Part shown: one piece after another, positions 8,721-52,991 of the stretch
How positions within the stretch are numbered: position 1 is the stretch's first letter
Layout of the letters: the number at the start of each line of letters is the position of its first letter
NCBI GenBank assembly: GCA_964577595.1
Contig: CAZNZK010000001.1
Span: 66,271-130,270 of the forward strand
From: an uncultured Candidatus Saccharibacteria bacterium
GTDB lineage: Bacteria; Patescibacteriota; Minisyncoccia; Phycocordibacterales; JAKAEA01
DNA length: 64,000 nucleotides
Direction: 5' to 3'
The notes under the pieces: generated by a model
What the model was told of the DNA's origin: nothing
What the model saw: only the letters and a program-made list of their open reading frames with translations
Database searches by the model: none
Program-made: the position numbers and the translations under genes

Positions 8721-8870
8721 GTTTATATTATAGATTATGATTAATTTTGATATACACACGATGCCGTTCTGATGACCACATTATTACAAGCCCATAATTT
8801 GATTAATTTCTTTTTTCAGTTTTTCAATACGAGCTAAAACTTTGTGAAGTATTTTCTTCATAGAATCATG

Positions 8871-9425
8871 TTATTTTAATGTTCCTAATTTTATTTGATT
8901 AATTTCCTTTTCCAGTTTTTTGATGCGGACATCCTGCCGTTGGCTTTGTTCCGTGAACTTTGTTTCCAACTGTTTCGTATGGCTGGCGAAGTTTTCGGCG
9001 GCGATCATCATCTGGGTGACGTCTTCAATGGCCAAGAGGATTATTGGGGGAAATATTTCCGACGGGTCTTTCTTTTGAAGATGGATCTGACGAGCATTCA
9101 AGATCATGATTTTCCGACCGATCACGGGAAATTCATGGATGACTTCAAACCCCTTGAAAAAGGTATGCTTGGGCAAAACATCCTCAAGAAGTTTTTGGAG
9201 GGCGGGAATATTCCACTGGCCATTTCCCAATTCATAGACGATTTTGCCCAGAGTATTTTTTGCCTCGACTTTGAAGGTCTGATAAAAAGGGTCGTTGGCG
9301 GCGATGACCCGAAGATCTTTATCCAGAATCAAAATAGGCTCGCGAACGACGTCAACCACGGTTTTAATGTATGTCCAACTCCTCTCCCACAAGCGTTCAA
9401 TAAAATCAACAGTGAGTGTTTCCAT
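8871..9425 (-). CDS. PAS-domain protein with C-terminal coiled coil
   Basis: PAS-like core EPILILDKDLRVIAANDPFYQTFKVEAKNTLGKIVYEL. Likely start at METLTVDFIERL. Heptad-like C-terminus. Confidence 0.4.
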   Translation of the reverse strand: METLTVDFIERLWERSWTYIKTVVDVVREPILILDKDLRVIAANDPFYQTFKVEAKNTLGKIVYELGNGQWNIPALQKLLEDVLPKHTFFKGFEVIHEFPVIGRKIMILNARQIHLQKKDPSEIFPPIILLAIEDVTQMMIAAENFASHTKQLETKFTEQSQRQDVRIKKLEKEINQIKLGTLK

Positions 9426-9593: not shown

Positions 9594-10112
9594 ATGACCT
9601 CAAAACAGAATATCGATCGAAGCGCCCAGTTAAGCGGGGCCCGTCATAGTTATGAAAATGGGCTTGTTAAGCACGCGTTTTTCAAAACAAACGATCAGGC
9701 GCTGAGCGATAATTTATCACAAGACACGTTTATGAAAACTTGGCAATATCTGGCCAAGGGAGGGAAAATCATCATCATGAAGGCTTTTTTGTATCACATC
9801 ATGAATAACCTCATCGTGGATGAATATCGGAAACGCGGAACAACTTCACTCGACGTTCTTTTGGAACAGGGTTTTGAACCGAGTACCGATGATGCCAGTG
9901 ATATTTTTAATCTTTTAGATGGAAAAACGGCAATGCTTTTGATTGGGCGTTTGCCGATCACCTATCAAAGAACGATGCATTTGCGGTATACGGAGAACAT
10001 GTCACTTTCAGAAATTTCTTTTGCTACTAAACAAACAAAAAATACCGTTGCCGTGCAAATCCATCGAGGACTGGAAAAAATGAGACTATTATGCGCGCCG
10101 GCTCACGCGTAA
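9594..10112 (+). CDS. RNA polymerase sigma-70 family, ECF subfamily sigma factor
   Basis: Region 2 (FMKTWQYL...FLYHIMNNLIVDEYRKR) and region 4 HTH (MSLSEISFATKQTKNTVAVQIHRGLEKMR). Confidence 0.6.
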   Translation: MTSKQNIDRSAQLSGARHSYENGLVKHAFFKTNDQALSDNLSQDTFMKTWQYLAKGGKIIIMKAFLYHIMNNLIVDEYRKRGTTSLDVLLEQGFEPSTDDASDIFNLLDGKTAMLLIGRLPITYQRTMHLRYTENMSLSEISFATKQTKNTVAVQIHRGLEKMRLLCAPAHA

Positions 10113-10268
10113 AATAAAATGAGAACAACATGCTCTGGATAATTATTGTCGTTTTGGTGGTCCTGTGGCTTCTCGGGTTTAGTTTTTCCATAGGCGGTGG
10201 TCTTATCCACCTCCTGCTCGTTATTGCGCTTGTCTTGGTTATTGTTCGGCTTCTGACGTAGTAGGTCA

Positions 10269-10338
10269 AAAATAGGTTCGAATCCTATTTGGGGTATCAA
10301 AAAATCACGTTGATTTATAAAGAGGTTTTCGGCGGCTC
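10269..10338 (+). repeat. direct repeat copy 1 (~70 nt) containing a tRNA 3'-end-like segment (T-arm ATAGGTTCGAATCCTAT plus acceptor 3' strand TTGGGGTA)
   Basis: Near-identical to 11583..11654. GGTTCGAATCC is the canonical T-arm. No matching tRNA 5' half upstream. Confidence 0.55.
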
Positions 10339-10427
10339 CGAGGGCTGGACGATGTTAGAACCTGGTTGCAGGAGTGTCCGTAGAGTAAATATTTGGATGT
10401 TAGTCAATTTGATATACTTCAGTTAAC

Positions 10428-11582
10428 ATGAAAAACTCTCAAAAAGCTTTCATTGTCCCTTTGTTAATAATTATTGCAGTGTTGGTGATTGGGGCTGGAA
10501 TCTATGTTTATGCGCAAAGTAAAATTCAATCACCAACAGAACAAGCTGTTGGTCAACCATATCCAAATAACAGTCTAGAAGATTGTATGGCCGGAAAGCT
10601 TGATCAGCCGCCCGTATACTGTTTTGAATTCACCTTACCCCCGAGTACCACTTTTCAAGGGGTGATGAATTCCTGTCTGGCATTGCCAGATAATCAGTAC
10701 GTGACTGATTTGGGCCCATATGAAAAAGCTTCCTGGTATCCAAGTAATTTTTCCTATCAAGAATATTGTGTTTCTCACTTAGCATCAGATATTATTGAGC
10801 CACAAAGAAATTATCCTTCTACCGACTTTCAAAAGAAATTTTTCCCAAATTTTGTATTACCCGACTTCAGTATTTCTGTCTACAACACAATTGATTATGC
10901 ATTCCAAGCAAAAGTCTGCACTAATTATGGTGTCGTTACTAATTCACCTTCGAAATCGGACCGATGTCTACTTTTTTCTTTCTTAAATCGAATGACGATC
11001 AAGCCGGGTGTCACTGACACTGACAATCAAGTGTCCATTTTTTGTGGCGCCTTAAGTTCAGAGAGTCTGTCGTCGCAATGTAAAAACGTTAAACCTCTCT
11101 CTATAGATACTGCAATTTCGTCTAACTCAAAAAAAGTGGTCGTTCCACCAGTCATAACTTCTTGGACAACATATGTAAGTTCAACGCTAGGTATTTCTTT
11201 CAATTATCCGGCAAGCTGGACACAGCCTGCGTATGTTGGACCAGATACAGGTCTTAACCAGCTTACTTTTAAAGATGGACTGTTTGTAAATATTGGCTTT
11301 AGAGATTCTTATGCAAACAAGTGGATAACACTGAATGACTACCTTAACCTACAAAACACTACTGGCGCTTCAGGATATTCCTCAAAGACAGGTAGCATAA
11401 CAGTAAATGGTAAAAACTATACTACAGTCACCTCTTTGTCTTATGGCCAAGTTGTTGAAAATTCAGTGATTATTCCTAATCCGAATTCAGCAACGAACTT
11501 CGTTATTTTTGATGACGGTGGAAAGATTGATGCAAAAACTTTTAACTCTATCGTTAGTAGCTTCAAATTTATCGGTCCATAA
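10428..11582 (+). CDS. hypothetical secreted/membrane-anchored protein (Cys-containing extracellular domain)
   Basis: 384-aa ORF. N-terminal TM/signal anchor FIVPLLIIIAVLVIGAGIYVYA. Exactly bracketed by the two direct repeats. Confidence 0.4.
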   Translation: MKNSQKAFIVPLLIIIAVLVIGAGIYVYAQSKIQSPTEQAVGQPYPNNSLEDCMAGKLDQPPVYCFEFTLPPSTTFQGVMNSCLALPDNQYVTDLGPYEKASWYPSNFSYQEYCVSHLASDIIEPQRNYPSTDFQKKFFPNFVLPDFSISVYNTIDYAFQAKVCTNYGVVTNSPSKSDRCLLFSFLNRMTIKPGVTDTDNQVSIFCGALSSESLSSQCKNVKPLSIDTAISSNSKKVVVPPVITSWTTYVSSTLGISFNYPASWTQPAYVGPDTGLNQLTFKDGLFVNIGFRDSYANKWITLNDYLNLQNTTGASGYSSKTGSITVNGKNYTTVTSLSYGQVVENSVIIPNPNSATNFVIFDDGGKIDAKTFNSIVSSFKFIGP

Positions 11583-11654
11583 AAATAGAGGTTCGAATCC
11601 TATTTGGGGTATCAAAAAAACACGTTGATTTATAAAAGAGATTTTCGGCGGCTC
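11583..11654 (+). repeat. direct repeat copy 2 (~70 nt) with tRNA 3'-end-like segment
   Basis: AAATAGAGGTTCGAATCCTATTTGGGGTATCAAAAAAACACGTTGATTTATAAAAGAGATTTTCGGCGGCTC matches copy 1 with 3 small differences. Confidence 0.55.
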
Positions 11655-11821
11655 GACGTTGTGCGCGAGGTAATAACCTTTTGGAAGACCAATAAAGAGC
11701 ACATTTATATCCCGAATTATAGGGATGGATTGTTTAAGATTACACAGCCGACAGAGGTAGAGATGGCGGAGTATCGGTAGGGTTTTAGCAAAAAGGGGTT
11801 AAAAATGATAAAGTTTAACTT

Positions 11822-12334
11822 ATGGAAATAAAATCAACTCTCACAAATCAATCTGGGCAAGTATTGGATGTTGCATATAACGATATCAATAGTGAGCTTG
11901 ACCTCGGTTATAAAAAAATCCAAGGCGTACATGCTTACTGCTTTTGCGAAGGTAAGTTGGTACTCGTATATGCCGATAAGAAAGGATATTGGACCCCACC
12001 AGGTGGTGGAGTTGAGGCTGGTGAAAGTGCTCGTGATGCAGTAAGACGAGAAGTAAAGGAAGAGACAAATATGAATGTTATCAGACAGCGCTTTATTGGT
12101 TGTCAGGATATAACAGAGCCACAAGGTGTTGTATCACAAACTAGATCAGTATGTATTGTTGAACCATTCGGTCCTTTTACTAATGATCCAGATGGAGACA
12201 TTACAAAGATTGAACTTATTGACCCTGCTGACTACAAGAAATATTTTGATTGGGGCGAGATTGGAGACCGCATTATGCAACGTGCACTTGAACTAAAAAA
12301 GCAGATGGATTTAGAAATGAATTACGTTAAGTAA
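11822..12334 (+). CDS. NUDIX hydrolase
   Basis: Nudix box GGGVEAGESARDAVRREVKEETNMN (GX5EX7REUXEEXGU). Lies in an AT-rich stretch. Confidence 0.7.
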   Translation: MEIKSTLTNQSGQVLDVAYNDINSELDLGYKKIQGVHAYCFCEGKLVLVYADKKGYWTPPGGGVEAGESARDAVRREVKEETNMNVIRQRFIGCQDITEPQGVVSQTRSVCIVEPFGPFTNDPDGDITKIELIDPADYKKYFDWGEIGDRIMQRALELKKQMDLEMNYVK

Positions 12335-12354
12335 GTTGAGACTACGCTTTATTG

Positions 12355-13323
12355 CTAAATTTCTTGAACTTTACTCTTAGCAAAATCCCAGAACTTTTGT
12401 GCAAATTCAACCTCTTTCAATACATACATATAGGGCGCCTGAATTAGAGCAGCGACGACTTGTAAGTAGGCTCTAACTTTCGGATCTAGTTTGGTATTTC
12501 GAACCTCTTCAAACTTGCTGAACATTGCGTCTGCATACTCTTTACCAGCCAAGACCTCAAGATCGGTAGCGGGTCTACTTATAGAATACGCATCGTTTTG
12601 AATTCTCCATATTCTCATTGGTGGCATAGAATCAATAAAATTAACCTTGTTATTAGAGAAAAGGATGTTACCACCATGATTATCGATAGATGCGAGATAT
12701 CTTTTGTTATCAAAATTCTTAAAATATGTATACGATGAAACAAAGGACTTTATCTTATCGATTATCGCATCTGCCTCTTGTTTTGGAATAAATTCAGAAC
12801 CCATATATAACCACTCTCTTGTACTCTCTAGATTTTGTAAATCTAAATCAACATAAGACATACTGAAAAGATCTTCCATGTCTGTGTGTTTTATCTCAGT
12901 CAATTTTTCTGTACGCTTAAACATCTCCTCAGTAATAAGTTCAAGGTTTTCTTTTGTGAAAGTCTTGTTTCTAATATGATTAAATAAAGTCTGGGAATCA
13001 TCTATTTTCTTCATGAGAATAAAATAGTCCTCCGATGTATCATGAGTTGCTTCGATAAAAGTATCACCGTCTCTTTTTACATATCCAAGCTTAATATAGA
13101 TATCAGGTGCCATGGTGTTATTCCATGTAAAATCGTTGTGATAGAACTCGTGTCTAAAACGATCATCTGAAAAATCACCAAAAAAAGCTTTGTTGTATTT
13201 ATATACTTTATATACATCATCACCAAAGAAAAAGAGCTTCGAGATAAGAGTTTCAATTACACGCTCTGGCTTGCCAAGTTTATTAAAATTTCCATTTTCA
13301 ATTGTTTCAATTAAGGTCGTCAT
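12355..13323 (-). CDS. protein-kinase-like fold phosphotransferase (APH/choline-kinase-like) family protein
   Basis: Brenner-type catalytic motif IDNHGGNILF (HGDxxxxN-like) and downstream IDSMPP (DFG-like) at appropriate spacing. AT-rich codon usage. Confidence 0.4.
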   Translation of the reverse strand: MTTLIETIENGNFNKLGKPERVIETLISKLFFFGDDVYKVYKYNKAFFGDFSDDRFRHEFYHNDFTWNNTMAPDIYIKLGYVKRDGDTFIEATHDTSEDYFILMKKIDDSQTLFNHIRNKTFTKENLELITEEMFKRTEKLTEIKHTDMEDLFSMSYVDLDLQNLESTREWLYMGSEFIPKQEADAIIDKIKSFVSSYTYFKNFDNKRYLASIDNHGGNILFSNNKVNFIDSMPPMRIWRIQNDAYSISRPATDLEVLAGKEYADAMFSKFEEVRNTKLDPKVRAYLQVVAALIQAPYMYVLKEVEFAQKFWDFAKSKVQEI

Positions 13324-13392: not shown

Positions 13393-14052
13393 TCACGAAC
13401 TGAACTGGCTCGCAAAGAGTTCGGCAGGAAGTTTGCAATCAAACTCCCGACTATACTCCCTGAACGTTGCCCGAACGTGTATGTGACCTTTCTTGTCCGA
13501 AGCGGTGAGCTCCATTTTGATGACTTCGCCGTGAATGAGAGGCTCCTTGAAACCAAACGTTGCCGCTAGGTCCCAAAGAACTTCATAGTGCGAAGTGTGG
13601 ATCATCACGTCCGGTAACTTGTCGGCGACGAATCGCTCGAACAGGCTCCCGAGATACGTGAAGAAACGGTGCTGAATCGCAGAACGTTTCTCGATGGCCA
13701 CGCCTTCTTCGAACCGAGGATCACTTGCATACGCTCGGTCCACATCACGCGCCGAGGGGAAGCTCGACCAGATGGCATTCGCAGCGTCGTTGTCATAGAA
13801 ATCCATGCAACGAATTGCGAGCTCATGTTCGACTTCCTCGTAGGGGTATCCCAATTTCTTGGCGATGATGTCTGCAGTCCCGAGTGCTCTCGGTAACGGC
13901 GAGCTGACGATACGAACGTCCTCGTTCTTTCCGACGATGTCGAGAATTTCAGCGGCTGCTTTGCCGATTTGTTCTTTTCCTTCGTCAGTCAGATCAGAGA
14001 ACTGTCCCGTATAGGCAGTTTTGCCGTGTCTCAAAAAGATCAGTGTTTTCAA
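13393..14052 (-). CDS. histidine phosphatase superfamily (phosphoglycerate-mutase-like) protein
   Basis: N-terminal LIFLRHGKTAY (RHG catalytic motif). ~220 aa. Confidence 0.7.
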   Translation of the reverse strand: MKTLIFLRHGKTAYTGQFSDLTDEGKEQIGKAAAEILDIVGKNEDVRIVSSPLPRALGTADIIAKKLGYPYEEVEHELAIRCMDFYDNDAANAIWSSFPSARDVDRAYASDPRFEEGVAIEKRSAIQHRFFTYLGSLFERFVADKLPDVMIHTSHYEVLWDLAATFGFKEPLIHGEVIKMELTASDKKGHIHVRATFREYSREFDCKLPAELFASQFSS

Positions 14053-14276
14053 AGGTGCCTCCTTGTTTGTTTTGTTTCTAGAGACACCACTTTAGTGTCT
14101 AGTAGTATTATAACATAGAATATCTAACAATGCAAGCTTTTGCAAAGTGAGCCTTAAATATGAGTATATTAACGAGTATAAACAGTAATTTAAAACCTAA
14201 GATTATTATTTAGGTCTGTCGCCCTTAATCAATCTCTCAAAAGCCTCGAGGTTGCCCATAGCATCATGTACAGGGA

Positions 14277-14590
14277 ATGGTAAAAAGAAAGCTGATCCTT
14301 GAAGATGAATTGAAAGTCACCAACAAGCAGGTCCTCGAATGGGTAGAGCTCACAGAAAAGACCTTTGACTTCGCTTGTTACGCTCACATTTGGTTTGAAA
14401 AAGGAGACGATAAGACCAAGCGAGCGATACTTTCATGTTTAGGCTCGAACCTCACTATAAAAGGCAAAAAACTCTTTGTAAATTACCATTCTTTCATAAA
14501 GACCATGATAAAAAGTCGAGAGGCGGTTATCAAAGAATTAGACTCCGCTCGAACCTCGAAACCATCAAGCCATATAAGACAAAACCCCAC
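14277..14590 (+). CDS. hypothetical small protein (possible gene remnant); 3' part of track ORF 14277..14708 overlaps a tRNA exon and is not coding
   Basis: ORF in AT-rich DNA. Only the first ~100 codons are outside the tRNA-Asn 3' exon. Confidence 0.2.
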
Positions 14591-14615
14591 AAATTGTGAG
14601 GTTTCGTCACTAGGG

Positions 14616-14936
14616 CTCCCCCGGGAGGATTCGAACCTCCGACCAATCGCTTACACGAGTCCTTCTATTACTAAAAGGGGTGGACTATATCATTTCCATG
14701 AACCGTGAGGTTTTTAGGAATGAGGCGCTTCCGCAAGAATCTTAAAAAATTCTTGAGTACTCCCGCAAGGGGATAGTCTCTACACCTTCAATGACTTTCG
14801 TCAAAGCTTGGCTCGGTATTGCCCACACGATCGTTTATCTTGGGGGGTTCACCGAATTCACCTCATTTTCAACCACTATTTTCAAAGTGGTGCTGCCTTG
14901 AGACAGGCGACTGCTCTACCGCTGAGCTACAGGGGA
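14616..14936 (-). tRNA. tRNA-Asn(GUU) interrupted in the anticodon loop by a 249-nt group I intron (exons 14903..14936 and 14616..14653)
   Basis: Minus-strand 5' exon TCCCCTG-TA-GCTCAGCGGTAGAGC-A-GTCGC-CTGT. 3' exon TAA-GCGAT-TGGTC-GGAGGTTCGAATCCTCC-CGGGGGA-G. Acceptor pairs with one G.U. Joined loop is CUGUUAA. U1-A72 and G73 as in bacterial tRNA-Asn. CCA not encoded. Confidence 0.7.
14654..14902 (-). other. group I self-splicing intron (subgroup IC3-like) within tRNA-Asn
   Basis: 5' exon ends in U, which pairs as U.G in P1 (exon CUGU / internal guide GCAG near the intron 5' end). Intron ends in G. Conserved core elements present: CCGAGCCAAGC, GAAGGTGTAGAGACTA (P7 5' strand) and GATATAGTCC (P7 3' strand / P9.0). 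Confidence 0.65.
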
Positions 14937-19109: not shown

Positions 19110-19178
19110 AATTTTCTTGTAGGGGCGGCGGGAGTTGCACCCGCACGGCTAACGTGTCAATGGTTAGTTGAGACTCTC
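19110..19178 (-). ncRNA. tRNA-like structured RNA, family copy A (acceptor AGGGGCG/CGCCCCT, mini D hairpin, 9-nt loop CAUUGACAC, T-arm GCGGG-UGCAACU-CCCGC)
   Basis: 69-nt cloverleaf-like fold on minus strand. Near-identical to 52761..52831 with compensatory stem changes. Preceded by a conserved promoter-like motif and a leader hairpin. A hairpin plus U-tract terminator lies ~150 nt downstream at ~18957..18995. Confidence 0.45.
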
Positions 19179-19330
19179 TCGCGCCCCTATTACCGAGCAA
19201 TCTTACGAAATTGCCGGTACTTGTATTGTAGGCAGGGGTCGTTAAATTAGTCCTGAAGGAATAGTAAAGAAAAATTAAAATTCAACACTGCTCATTAGAA
19301 AAAACAAGATGTCAAATTTTCTGGTGCCGG

Positions 19331-33067: not shown

Positions 33068-33069
33068 TA

Positions 33070-33130
33070 GGCAAAAGGGCTTTGACGAAGGCTTTCCCTC
33101 TCGTCCGGCCTGAGAAAAAGTCCTTTTGCC
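33070..33130 (+). repeat. nested-hairpin intergenic repeat, family 1 copy 1 (GGCAAAAGG...AGGC-TTTCCCTCTCGTCCG-GCCT-GAGAAAAAGT-CCTTTTGCC)
   Basis: 61-nt element immediately after the mrdA stop. Conserved core shared with 33713..33773. Outer and inner stems differ between copies but remain paired. Confidence 0.5.
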
Positions 33131-33216
33131 GAGTATTTGTCCCCACGTGTTCTTGACTTATCGCCCAGAATTGGTAAACTTGCGCGTACTTTTACTCCCT
33201 TATTTTTTTCACGATT

Positions 33217-33693: not shown

Positions 33694-33712
33694 GGGATTT
33701 GCTAGAATAAAA

Positions 33713-33773
33713 GGCAGAAAGGGTTTTCCGAAAGCTTTCCCTCTCGTCCGGCTTGAGAAAAACCTTTTCTGCC
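33713..33773 (+). repeat. nested-hairpin intergenic repeat, family 1 copy 2
   Basis: GGCAGAAAGG-gttttccgaa-AAGC-TTTCCCTCTCGTCCG-GCTT-GAGAAAAA-CCTTTTCTGCC immediately after the greA stop. Compensatory changes relative to copy 1 in both stems. Confidence 0.5.
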
Positions 33774-33787
33774 GTTAATTATTACAC

Positions 33788-37821: not shown

Positions 37822-39543
37822 ATGAGCACTCGTAGCCGCATTCGTCTCATTTCCATTTTGCTCATAGCTTTTGCTCTGGTGCTCGTTGGCCGCCTTTATT
37901 TTATTCAGATAGTTCAGGGTGGGGATTTTTCTGCGCGTGCCGACGAGCAATATACTCGGCCGAGTAGTGGCCTCTACAACCGCGGTACTATTTACTTTCA
38001 GGATAAAACAAGCACGCTCATTCCTGCCGCTTCACTAGCCACGGGTTATACGGTTGCGATTAATCCTAATCAAATAAGCGCCAGTGGTACGCCAGCGCTG
38101 ATCTACCAAAAACTTAATGGTATTTTGCCGCTGGATAAACCGACATTTTTGGCCGATGCTGCCAAAAGCACCGATACATATGAAGAAATTGCTCAACATG
38201 TTCCGAAATCGCAAGCTGACGCCATTACCGCCCTCAAACTTTCCGCTATTGGTATTTATCAAGATCGTTGGCGAGTCTACCCAGAAGATACTCTAGCTTC
38301 GCAGGTCGTTGGTTTTGTTGGTTACGATAGCACTACCACTGACGGTCGCTATGGTTTGGAAAAATATTACAATAGCACGCTAGAACGCGATGGCGATGAT
38401 GTATACGTAAATATTTTTGCTCAAATTTTTTCTAATATAAAAGAAGTCACTGGAGGTCAGCAAGAGGGGGACATTGTTACCACTATTGATCCGAACGTTC
38501 AGCAATATTTAGAGCAACAATTGCAGGCTGTGCAAGCAAAATACAGCTCAACAGTCACTGGTGGTATTGTTATTGATCCACAGACTGGCAATATTATTGC
38601 CATGGGCGCCACCCCCGATTTTGACCCGAATAATTACGGTAATGTCAGCGATATTGGTGTTTTCACAAACCCGTTGGTGCAAAACGTGTATGAAATGGGT
38701 TCGGTTATAAAGTCGCTGACTATGGCAGCCGGCTTGGATGCGGGGGTAGTGACACCGACCACGACCTATAACGACACCGGCTCGCTCACTTTGGACGGGC
38801 ACACTATTTGGAATTATGATTTACGTGGTCGGGGGCCACAAACCACTATGCAAACGGTTTTGAATGACTCGCTCAACACGGGTGCGGCCACAGTTGCCCT
38901 CAAGCTCGGCAATAGCCTATTCTCAAATTATATGTACCGTTTTGGCCTTGGTTCCAGCACGGGTATTGATTTACCTAATGAGGCACACAACTTACTGAGT
39001 ACTCTACAAAGCTCGCGTGACATTGATCATGCCACCGCCGCGTATGGCCAGGGTATTGCCATGTCGCCGATTTCTACGGTCCGCGCGCTTTGTGCTTTGG
39101 CTAATGGTGGCACGCTTATTACGCCGCACGTGGTCAATCAGATTAATTATACCGATGGTACGAGTCGCACGCTTTCGTATGGTCCAGGTCCGCGGGCTAT
39201 TTCCACCAGCACAGCGCTGGCTATTTCCGGCATGCTTACCACGGTGTATCAGCAGGCCTTAGTTGCCGACAAGGTTGGCGCGGTTAAATTTAATAACTAT
39301 TCCGTTGCTTCTAAAACCGGCACGGCTCAAATTCCGGCGCCTGGCGGCGGCTATCTGCCCAATCAATATTTGAACTCTTTCTTCGGTTATTTCCCCTCAG
39401 CTCAGTCGCAGGCACGTTTCCTGATTTTCTTGTATACTTATAAGCCGCAGAATGTTGACTTTGCTTCGCAGAGCTTAACGCCATCATTTGTTAATTTGGT
39501 CAAATATCTGATAAATTATTACGAAGTGCCTCCAGATCGCTAG
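37822..39543 (+). CDS. ftsI: peptidoglycan D,D-transpeptidase FtsI (PBP3-like)
   Basis: SxxK (GSVIKS), SxN (NDSLNTG), KTG (KTGTAQ). N-terminal TM. dcw position. Confidence 0.75.
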   Translation: MSTRSRIRLISILLIAFALVLVGRLYFIQIVQGGDFSARADEQYTRPSSGLYNRGTIYFQDKTSTLIPAASLATGYTVAINPNQISASGTPALIYQKLNGILPLDKPTFLADAAKSTDTYEEIAQHVPKSQADAITALKLSAIGIYQDRWRVYPEDTLASQVVGFVGYDSTTTDGRYGLEKYYNSTLERDGDDVYVNIFAQIFSNIKEVTGGQQEGDIVTTIDPNVQQYLEQQLQAVQAKYSSTVTGGIVIDPQTGNIIAMGATPDFDPNNYGNVSDIGVFTNPLVQNVYEMGSVIKSLTMAAGLDAGVVTPTTTYNDTGSLTLDGHTIWNYDLRGRGPQTTMQTVLNDSLNTGAATVALKLGNSLFSNYMYRFGLGSSTGIDLPNEAHNLLSTLQSSRDIDHATAAYGQGIAMSPISTVRALCALANGGTLITPHVVNQINYTDGTSRTLSYGPGPRAISTSTALAISGMLTTVYQQALVADKVGAVKFNNYSVASKTGTAQIPAPGGGYLPNQYLNSFFGYFPSAQSQARFLIFLYTYKPQNVDFASQSLTPSFVNLVKYLINYYEVPPDR

Positions 39544-39546
39544 AAG

Positions 39547-39605
39547 GTGAAAGAACTTTTCGCAGGGGCTTGCATCGTTTATCTCCCCGAGAAAAGTTCT
39601 TTCAC
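39547..39605 (+). repeat. nested-hairpin intergenic repeat, family 2 copy 1
   Basis: GTGAAAGAACTTTTC-GCA-GGGG-CTTGCATCGTTTATCT-CCCC-GA-GAAAAGTTCTTTCAC between ftsI and murF. Reverse-complement homolog of 49570..49628 with compensatory outer-stem changes. Confidence 0.5.
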
Positions 39606-39616
39606 CGTATAACACT

Positions 39617-49553: not shown

Positions 49554-49569
49554 TAAAATTTATTATAAC

Positions 49570-49628
49570 GCAAAAGAGCTTTTCTCGGGGAGATAAACGA
49601 TGCAAGCCCCTTCGAAAAGCTCTTTTGC
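49570..49628 (+). repeat. nested-hairpin intergenic repeat, family 2 copy 2 (inverted orientation relative to 39547..39605)
   Basis: GCAAAAGAGCTTTTC-tcGGGGagataaacgatgcaagCCCCtt-CGAAAAGCTCTTTTGC between recR and dnaB. 16-bp perfect outer stem. Confidence 0.5.
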
Positions 49629-49651
49629 TTTCAAATACACTAAAAACCACC

Positions 49652-52551: not shown

Positions 52552-52760
52552 GAAAAGAGTTATATATTAAATTGTCTGTTATCACTCGGGTACAAGCGAT
52601 CAATTTTGCGTGTATAGATTTTACGCAGTTCTCTTGACGCACTCAATTTTCTAATGAGCAGTACGCGATTTCATAAAAGATTTAAGTCTCTTTCAGGACT
52701 ATTTTAACAACCCCTGACTAAAATACTAATACCGGCAATTCTGCGGAATTGCTCGGCAAT

Positions 52761-52831
52761 AGGGGCGTGAGAGTAGTCTCAACTAATTCTTGACGTATTA
52801 GTCTTGCGGGGTGCAACTCCCGCCGCCCCTA
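52761..52831 (+). ncRNA. tRNA-like structured RNA, family copy C (loop UCUUGACGU; anticodon-like stem CTAAT/ATTAG compensatory to copy A CTAAC/GTTAG)
   Basis: Shares about 85% identity with copy A from 52694 (CAGGACTATTTTAACAACCCCTGACTAAAATAC promoter-like motif) through the tRNA-like domain, downstream conserved blocks and the terminator at ~52958..52990. Confidence 0.45.
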
Positions 52832-52991
52832 CCACAAAAATAGTCAACAACACAAATTTTTTATTGCGTATAGTTGCTTGTATGTGGGGATCTGTTATAC
52901 TCCCTTAACATGTCAAGAGTTAGTTAGGGATTATATCTCTAAGACTAAGCCAAAGACTCCGCTAGGTGTAATAACTAGGCGGGGTTTTTGT

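Follow-up and report, generated by a model that had tools for sequence, protein, structure and literature searches.

Mobile elements that target tRNA genes are reportedly found in several layouts, one of which, as Williams is said to have described in 2002, has an identity block that runs from the T-stem past the 3' end of the tRNA, and the ICESt1/CIME system of Streptococcus thermophilus is said to comprise cis-mobilizable elements (CIMEs) and to show tandem accretion at attachment (att) sites. Fragments of tRNA genes are a documented and pervasive by-product of the integration of mobile elements, the usual pattern being one complete and one partial tRNA copy (van der Gulik et al. 2023, PMC9897764). 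Here, we describe two direct repeats of slightly more than 70 nt, each with a segment resembling a tRNA 3' end, that enclose a single gene in a 64,000-nt stretch of DNA from an uncultured Candidatus Saccharibacteria bacterium (the window), and compare them with the attL/attR sites, of T-loop or 3'-end sublocation, of prophages, integrative and conjugative elements, and genomic islands in tRNA genes (Reiter 1989; Williams 2002; Islander; PMC9897764), as well as with CIMEs, integron cassettes, and serine-recombinase elements of Patescibacteria. With a probability of about one half (0.5), the repeats are decayed attL/attR-type scars left where the same site was used for integration twice in succession, the integrase having been lost.

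The two repeats were delimited at positions 10268 to 10338 (copy 1, 71 nt) and 11581 to 11654 (copy 2, 74 nt), both on the + strand, with a spacing of 1315 nt; the near-identical direct repeats recorded in the first-pass annotation at 10269 to 10338 and 11583 to 11654 are therefore confirmed, with slightly refined limits. The copies have in common an exact core of 31 nt, AGGTTCGAATCCTATTTGGGGTATCAAAAAA, and differ over their full length by two substitutions, one 2-nt indel, and one 1-nt indel (~93% identity). The 30-mer GGTTCGAATCCTATTTGGGGTATCAAAAAA, that is, the core minus its leading A, has just two exact occurrences in the window, and 0 of 100 shuffles contained a match. Similarity between the copies ends sharply at the repeat borders: local alignment of the outside flanks was no better than that of shuffled sequences, the observed score being reached by 516 of 2,000 shuffles on the right and by 272 of 2,000 on the left. 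Sharp bounds, an exact 31-nt core, and unrelated flanks are the features expected of att hybrids, not of a decaying long duplication. A profile built from both copies detected no third copy in the 64 kb, and no copy was found in the other loci examined or in the public collections scanned; neither terminal inverted repeats nor target-site duplications were found at the repeat unit. The arrangement is not an assembly artifact, being the same in two independent assemblies (L001 and L002) whose k-mer length of 141 exceeds that of the repeat. Among the Logan contigs, built with k = 31, L003 and L029 begin and end exactly at the 31-mer, in the way that a de Bruijn graph handles true repeats; contigs that break at the repeat in this way are uninformative on whether the site is empty or occupied.

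Positions 10272 to 10296 (+) of copy 1 read as a tRNA 3' end, comprising a T-arm with a perfect 5-bp T-stem and a canonical T-loop (ATAGG-TTCGAAT-CCTAT), followed by the 7-nt acceptor 3' strand TTGGGGT and the discriminator A. The tRNA-like part of copy 2 (11590 to 11611, +) is less well preserved: its T-stem 5' strand reads ATAGAGG and thus contains a 2-nt insertion, because of which the hairpin must be regarded as damaged rather than maintained. The initial description of each copy as a T-arm plus acceptor 3' strand plus discriminator holds, with the correction that copy 2 has a broken T-stem. The derivation of the segment from a tRNA gene is well supported by sequence comparison, because the same 22-mer, GGTTCGAATCCTATTTGGGGTA, forms the 3' end of tRNAs at two other loci (L013, 2907 to 2980, and L014, 10824 to 10896) that are called both by ARAGORN (anticodons TAG and CAG, respectively) and by Rfam (53.5 and 52.6 bits). 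Both of these tRNAs have Leu anticodons without the long variable arm. Three further loci (L004, L005, and L015) contain the 22-mer; all five are phage-like tRNA arrays, and outside the window the 22-mer was found in such arrays only. In L004 and L005, which are IMG/VR contigs, it lies in sequences rejected as tRNA by both ARAGORN and Rfam (L004, 430 to 528; L005, 1084 to 1162); upstream of it in L004 is a CUUCAAA loop, resembling one with a UCA anticodon, and no 5' acceptor strand is visible. Exact matching against 185,579 bacterial and archaeal species-representative genomes (one genome per species) yielded no occurrence of the 22-mer, T-loop variants included; because such scans for a cognate tRNA need exact matches, a diverged host tRNA would be missed.

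At neither copy was a tRNA detected by ARAGORN, or by Rfam at E values of ≤10. The 5' half of the tRNA, already noted as missing at first pass, is indeed lacking from both copies because coding sequence abuts each of them: copy 1 begins 6 nt past the stop codon of a gene of the DUF5670 family, and the first 2 nt of copy 2 overlap the TAA stop codon of the 384-codon open reading frame (ORF) that the repeats enclose. A functional tRNA or tRNA-like RNA is ruled out, given that there is no 5' acceptor strand, no Rfam match, and no stable common fold. The segment was also said to differ from the 3' end of the nearby tRNA-Asn, and this is so, with no match past the T-loop; a match confined to the T-loop, together with the opposite strand, rules out the repeat as a displaced 3' end of that gene.

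Beyond the discriminator, the two copies have in common a tail of 42 to 43 nt (10297 to 10338, 42 nt, TCAAAAAATCACGTTGATTTATAAAGAGGTTTTCGGCGGCTC, in copy 1; 11612 to 11654 in copy 2; both +). The roughly 45 nt of shared sequence that had been reported after the tRNA part is therefore real, if slightly shorter. No homologues of the tail were found in viral contig, phage, or plasmid collections. Neither copy folds better than its shuffles on either strand (+ strand, Z = -0.4 and +0.2; - strand, Z = +0.2 and +1.0), the minimum-energy structures of copies 1 and 2 differ, and a consensus scan of the + strand identified no promoter-like or terminator-like sites inside either copy. With no significant or common fold, no consensus site on the + strand, and no Rfam match at E values of ≤10, a structured RNA, a terminator, and a promoter were all rejected. 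The possibility that the tail is the antisense 3' coding end of a serine recombinase was rejected as well, the profile of the recombinase C terminus matching, in six-frame translations of the window, only positions 14262 to 14705 and nothing near the repeats.

The segment between the repeats (10339 to 11580, +) consists of an 89-nt leader and the 384-aa ORF (10428 to 11582), and the earlier statement that exactly one ORF is bracketed is correct. This ORF is the first of three consecutive genes whose GC content at third codon positions (GC3) ranges from 0.287 to 0.319 vs 0.445 to 0.644 in 21 other genes checked. It has a GC3 of 0.317, and the remainder of the low-GC3 block (11655 to 13323) is occupied by a NUDIX hydrolase gene (11822 to 12334, +, GC3 0.287) and a 322-aa gene with no function assigned (12355 to 13323, -, GC3 0.319). 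The left flank is host-like: the gene that abuts repeat 1 encodes a 43-aa membrane protein of the DUF5670/lmo0937 family (10130 to 10261, +, GC3 0.568), and it is preceded by the gene for an ECF-type sigma factor (9594 to 10112). The cargo had been placed immediately downstream of the sigma factor gene, which is incorrect, as the DUF5670 gene precedes repeat 1. Because GC3 shifts at this point, the left boundary between host and foreign DNA coincides with repeat 1, and this composition boundary is the strongest new support for the interpretation of the repeats as scars. Repeat 2 lies inside the low-GC3 block, which continues for about 1.7 kb beyond it, to ~13.33 kb; because of this extension, the statement that the repeats bracket an element is too simple. 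To the right of the block lies a His-phosphatase gene (13393 to 14052, GC3 0.595), and the window as a whole is a chromosomal segment, assembled from an ENA metagenome, the core genes of which include mreB, RRF, dnaB, recR, and those for several aminoacyl-tRNA synthetases and penicillin-binding proteins.

The bracketed DNA is foreign not only in composition but also in distribution. The 384-aa protein is Cys-rich, has an N-terminal membrane anchor, and received no family assignment from Pfam, NCBIfam, PHROGs, or PDB; among 5.8 billion proteins, it has only two real homologues (47 to 49% identity), both in other Patescibacteria. At the loci of the cargo homologues (L006 to L012), synteny is not kept, the sequences are too distant for DNA comparison, and the repeat is absent. 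A phage origin of the cargo was considered and rejected, there being no IMG/VR relative, no PHROG match, and no DNA similarity to phages or plasmids. The locus L006, where the cargo homologue is a 586-aa protein, has duplications of its own: the upstream region and the N-terminal anchor are repeated before a second gene (9956 to 10087 and 13559 to 13690), and a 31-nt intergenic motif recurs upstream of genes (12330 to 12360 and 14330 to 14360). The relatives of the sigma factor are labeled Minisyncoccota or Patescibacteria; the nearest one from any other strain shares 64% identity and has a different gene order, and at the sigma factor homologue loci (L017 to L020), synteny is not kept, the sequences are likewise too distant for DNA comparison, and the repeat is absent. 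No close relatives and no cassette-free relative were found in the searchable collections.

The only recombinase trace in the window is a truncated large serine recombinase, 2.6 kb away from the repeats, at the gene for tRNA-Asn(GTT) (14616 to 14936, -). It is a C-terminal remnant of ~110 to 130 residues (14277 to 14616, +), the frame of which runs antisense into the 3' end of the tRNA gene. Short ORFs with 77 to 84% identity to the remnant are present in numerous contigs of Patescibacteria, and a profile made from these remnant ORFs matches the C-terminal ~120 residues of proteins of 540 to 590 aa with the architecture Resolvase + Recombinase + Zn_ribbon_recom. Only the C-terminal piece survives in the window, as no other remnant was detected with tblastn and the full-length recombinases. 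In L023, the same recombinase remnant adjoins a degenerate, orphan tRNA-Asn 3' fragment, whereas in L022, ~460 nt separate it from an intact tRNA-Asn. As read from these sequences, tRNA 3' ends demonstrably serve as integration points in this lineage and leave orphan fragments behind. The event at tRNA-Asn is separate from the repeats: the tRNA concerned is another one, encoded on the other strand, and a host-like gene lies in between.

Several further observations concern this recombinase and its tRNA. In two of the full-length relatives of 540 to 590 aa (P0144 and P0167), the final codons overlap a tRNA T-arm, which suggests that serine-recombinase elements integrating at tRNA 3' ends form a widespread family in bacteria of the candidate phyla radiation (CPR). 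The tRNA-Asn gene of the window is split in its anticodon loop by a group I intron of ~249 nt (~14654 to 14902; Rfam RF00028, 53.3 bits), and it was missed by ARAGORN because of this interruption; the same intron-containing tRNA-Asn is also present at the end of L024. The sample ERZ27245399 has a contig ending at 14592 and a second one starting from ~14392; this break falls inside the remnant, just 3' of tRNA-Asn, and may point to heterogeneity among strains or to a repeat at the junction.

Taken as a whole, the att-scar interpretation is partly supported. The first-pass annotation saw in the repeats the signature of attL and attR sites; this is borne out insofar as the repeats are tRNA-derived and sharply bounded, the left one is located at a composition boundary, and there is integration debris nearby, but it is weakened in that an intact tRNA and a linked integrase are missing and foreign DNA continues beyond repeat 2. 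Under this interpretation, the ancestral sequence would have been a tRNA 3' end, from the T-arm to the discriminator, followed by a trailer of ~42 nt, and the low-GC foreign DNA would have entered by recombination within the common 31-nt core. This probably took place in two steps, as the presence of foreign DNA on both sides of repeat 2 calls for one insertion after another (accretion). In the first step, the segment with the NUDIX and 322-aa genes would have been inserted, its distal att copy being lost later; in the second, the 1.24-kb segment with the 384-aa gene would have been inserted into the remaining left-hand copy, which would have regenerated the repeat on each side. The recombinase responsible would no longer be present, and there is no intact target tRNA at this locus. 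The end state would be an integrase-less, att-flanked mini-island that may be a fossil or, at most, mobilizable in trans. We infer the recombination at the core, the order of the two steps, and the disappearance of both the integrase and a third copy.

A number of observations weigh against this interpretation, the strongest objections being the missing intact tRNA and the missing integrase. A tRNA with a matching 3' end is absent from the 64 kb, and neither copy lies within an intact tRNA; that both copies are partial is the main departure from the textbook picture. Neither inside nor next to the repeats is there an integrase: the sole ORF between them has no recombinase domain, and a Pfam search of all called genes found no intact recombinase in the 64 kb. 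The right end of the foreign block, at ~13.33 kb, has no repeat copy, and the loss of a third copy must therefore be assumed. Look-ups of the exact proteins found neither an empty site nor a circular junction, the occupied arrangement being present in all four of the samples with the strain. Finally, att identity blocks do not usually extend as far beyond a tRNA as the 42-nt tail does here.

A comparison with the described systems brings out the same mixture. As in attL/attR sites in tRNA genes, the repeats are made of tRNA gene sequence from the T-stem to the 3' end, contain an exact core, and extend a little past the tRNA; they flank DNA of foreign composition, and the fragments are not functional tRNAs. 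Unlike in such sites, both copies are orphans, there is no integrase, only a single gene is contained in the 1.24 kb, foreign DNA continues past repeat 2, and the common trailer is long (42 nt). The resemblance to CIMEs lies in an att-flanked segment without a recombination module of its own and in the att-cargo-att-cargo layout that comes from reuse of a site; by analogy, movement would be possible only with a cognate integrase acting in trans. In contrast to the CIME system, the host belongs to the Patescibacteria, accretion should have left a third att copy that is not there, and searches of viral contigs, phages, and plasmids returned no element with this att sequence. The unit of 1315 bp is also reminiscent of an integron cassette, in that a single promoter-proximal ORF ends exactly at a repeat of ~70 nt and a similar repeat is located upstream. 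However, inverted cores of the R''/L''-L'/R' type are lacking, as are, by inspection, a GTTRRRY/RYYYAAC pair, a significant hairpin, IntI, and a longer array; moreover, attC sites differ between integron cassettes, whereas the repeats here are near-identical. The missing inverted cores, fold, and IntI rule out an integron attC. The serine-recombinase elements at tRNA-Asn in Patescibacteria (P0144, P0167, P0180, and the remnant at 14277 to 14616) come from the same phylum and, in the case of the remnant, the same region, and they too are associated with orphan tRNA 3' fragments, as in L023. They differ from the repeats in the tRNA targeted and in its strand, and the repeat tail shows no similarity to the C-terminal coding region of the recombinase. 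To our knowledge, serine recombinases neither need nor create direct repeats of 70 nt.

Among the alternatives, the one that fares best, although we consider it unlikely, is a Campbell-type insertion by RecA-dependent homologous recombination, in which a foreign circular or linear fragment carrying the same 71-nt unit would have duplicated this unit around the 384-aa gene. The identity of ~93% over the full 71 nt and its abrupt end on both sides look like the product of a limited patch of homology, the absence of an integrase is accounted for, and the restriction of the cargo homologues to other Patescibacteria makes a related donor with a similar intergenic sequence plausible. However, RecA would have had only a short, imperfectly matched substrate of 71 nt, and the start of the unit exactly at the tRNA T-stem is left unexplained. 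Furthermore, an unrelated donor would have to carry the same tRNA fragment and trailer beside the gene, which would itself imply a conserved, att-like module.

We consider it improbable that the repeat is a functional cis element maintained by selection in two copies, such as a 3' untranslated region stabilizer, a processing signal, a weak terminator based on a hairpin resembling a T-arm, or a protein-binding site. The position of both copies, which start 0 to 6 nt past the stop codon of a + strand gene, is compatible with such a role, and the genome has other repeated, structured intergenic elements (39543 to 39612 and 49563 to 49632; 33069 to 33131 and 33712 to 33774). Nevertheless, the Z scores near zero argue against a common or significant fold, and the one evident structure, the T-arm hairpin, is disrupted in copy 2 by the 2-nt insertion. 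The consensus scan of the + strand found nothing resembling a terminator or promoter in either copy, and there are just the two copies, with no homologues in the collections searched. A dispersed family of tRNA-derived repeats (SINE-, MITE-, or REP-like), of which further copies would lie outside the window and which would bracket the gene by coincidence, appears similarly improbable. The sequence is indeed tRNA-derived, only 64 kb of a genome of roughly 1 Mb were inspected, and this genome holds other small repeat families; but the 64 kb contain two copies only, a mere 1.3 kb apart, and the scans of other loci and public collections returned none. The lack of terminal inverted repeats and target-site duplications also speaks against such a family, and the location at a composition boundary favors an integration junction.

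Still less credence is given to a reading in which the 1315-bp unit, made up of the leader, the surface-protein ORF, and the 71-nt repeat, would be a live, integrase-less cassette, its recombinase being supplied from elsewhere in the genome or by a phage. A chance resemblance to tRNA or an assembly artifact is effectively refuted: the 11-mer GGTTCGAATCC is near-palindromic to itself and hairpins after genes are common, but by our own arithmetic only ~0.03 exact occurrences of the 11-mer are expected in 64 kb, its sole occurrence in the window outside the repeats is within tRNA-Asn, three more stem pairs and 8 nt of acceptor and discriminator that match real tRNAs exactly add weight to this, and the arrangement was reproduced in the independent k = 141 assemblies.

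The window contains other small repeats and tRNA-like sequences. Two paralogous tRNA-like genes of ~70 nt (52761 to 52833, +, and 19118 to 19188, -) escape both ARAGORN and Rfam. Their acceptor stem measures 7 bp and their D-arm is tiny; the anticodon stem, of 5 bp, shows a single compensatory change, and there is a 9-nt loop with UUGAC. In the T-loop, GUGCAAC replaces TTCGAAT, and one of the copies ends in CCA. Their consensus fold is a cloverleaf (z = -2.9 and -1.7), and the motif is absent from viral contigs. A promoter-like block of ~60 nt, of which TTCAGGACTATTTTAACAACCCCTGNCTA is a part, occurs at 52666 to 52726, at 56480 to 56540, and at ~19200 to 19290, that is, upstream of both tRNA-like genes and of a tRNA-Thr gene (56363 to 56434) that scores below the Rfam gathering threshold; this distribution suggests that the block is a common promoter for small-RNA genes. 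Of the intergenic long-hairpin repeats mentioned above, the pair at 39543 and 49563 is 86% complementary over 70 nt; its interior is invariant, whereas the outer stem has changed in a compensatory manner (GGTGAAAGAAC...GTTCTTTCACC vs AGCAAAAGAGC...GCTCTTTTGC). These repeats are probably structured, terminator-like or regulatory elements. Lastly, the PAS-domain gene has the 3' end of its coding sequence repeated just past its stop codon, as a 35-nt direct repeat with 86% identity and a spacing of 96 nt (8797 to 8831 and 8893 to 8927).

The repeats are most likely fossil scars of att-type integration, and such scars are a familiar, rather ordinary feature. If the interpretation favored here is right, the repeats would add a further tRNA 3'-fragment scar that marks acquired DNA, in Patescibacteria, a group whose mobile elements are poorly charted. 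They would also pinpoint an integration hotspot and a foreign block of roughly 3 kb that encodes a surface protein, a NUDIX hydrolase, and a protein of no assigned function, and this would be useful in tracing gene flow in the CPR. For annotation, the practical consequence is that such fragments should not be called tRNAs. The general picture would be unchanged unless the cassette proves to be mobile in trans. Should the unit indeed be a live cassette, it would represent a minimal exchange of surface-protein cassettes in CPR bacteria, with insertion and excision at the 31-nt core, following a logic like that of integron cassettes or CIMEs but based on a tRNA 3'-end site.

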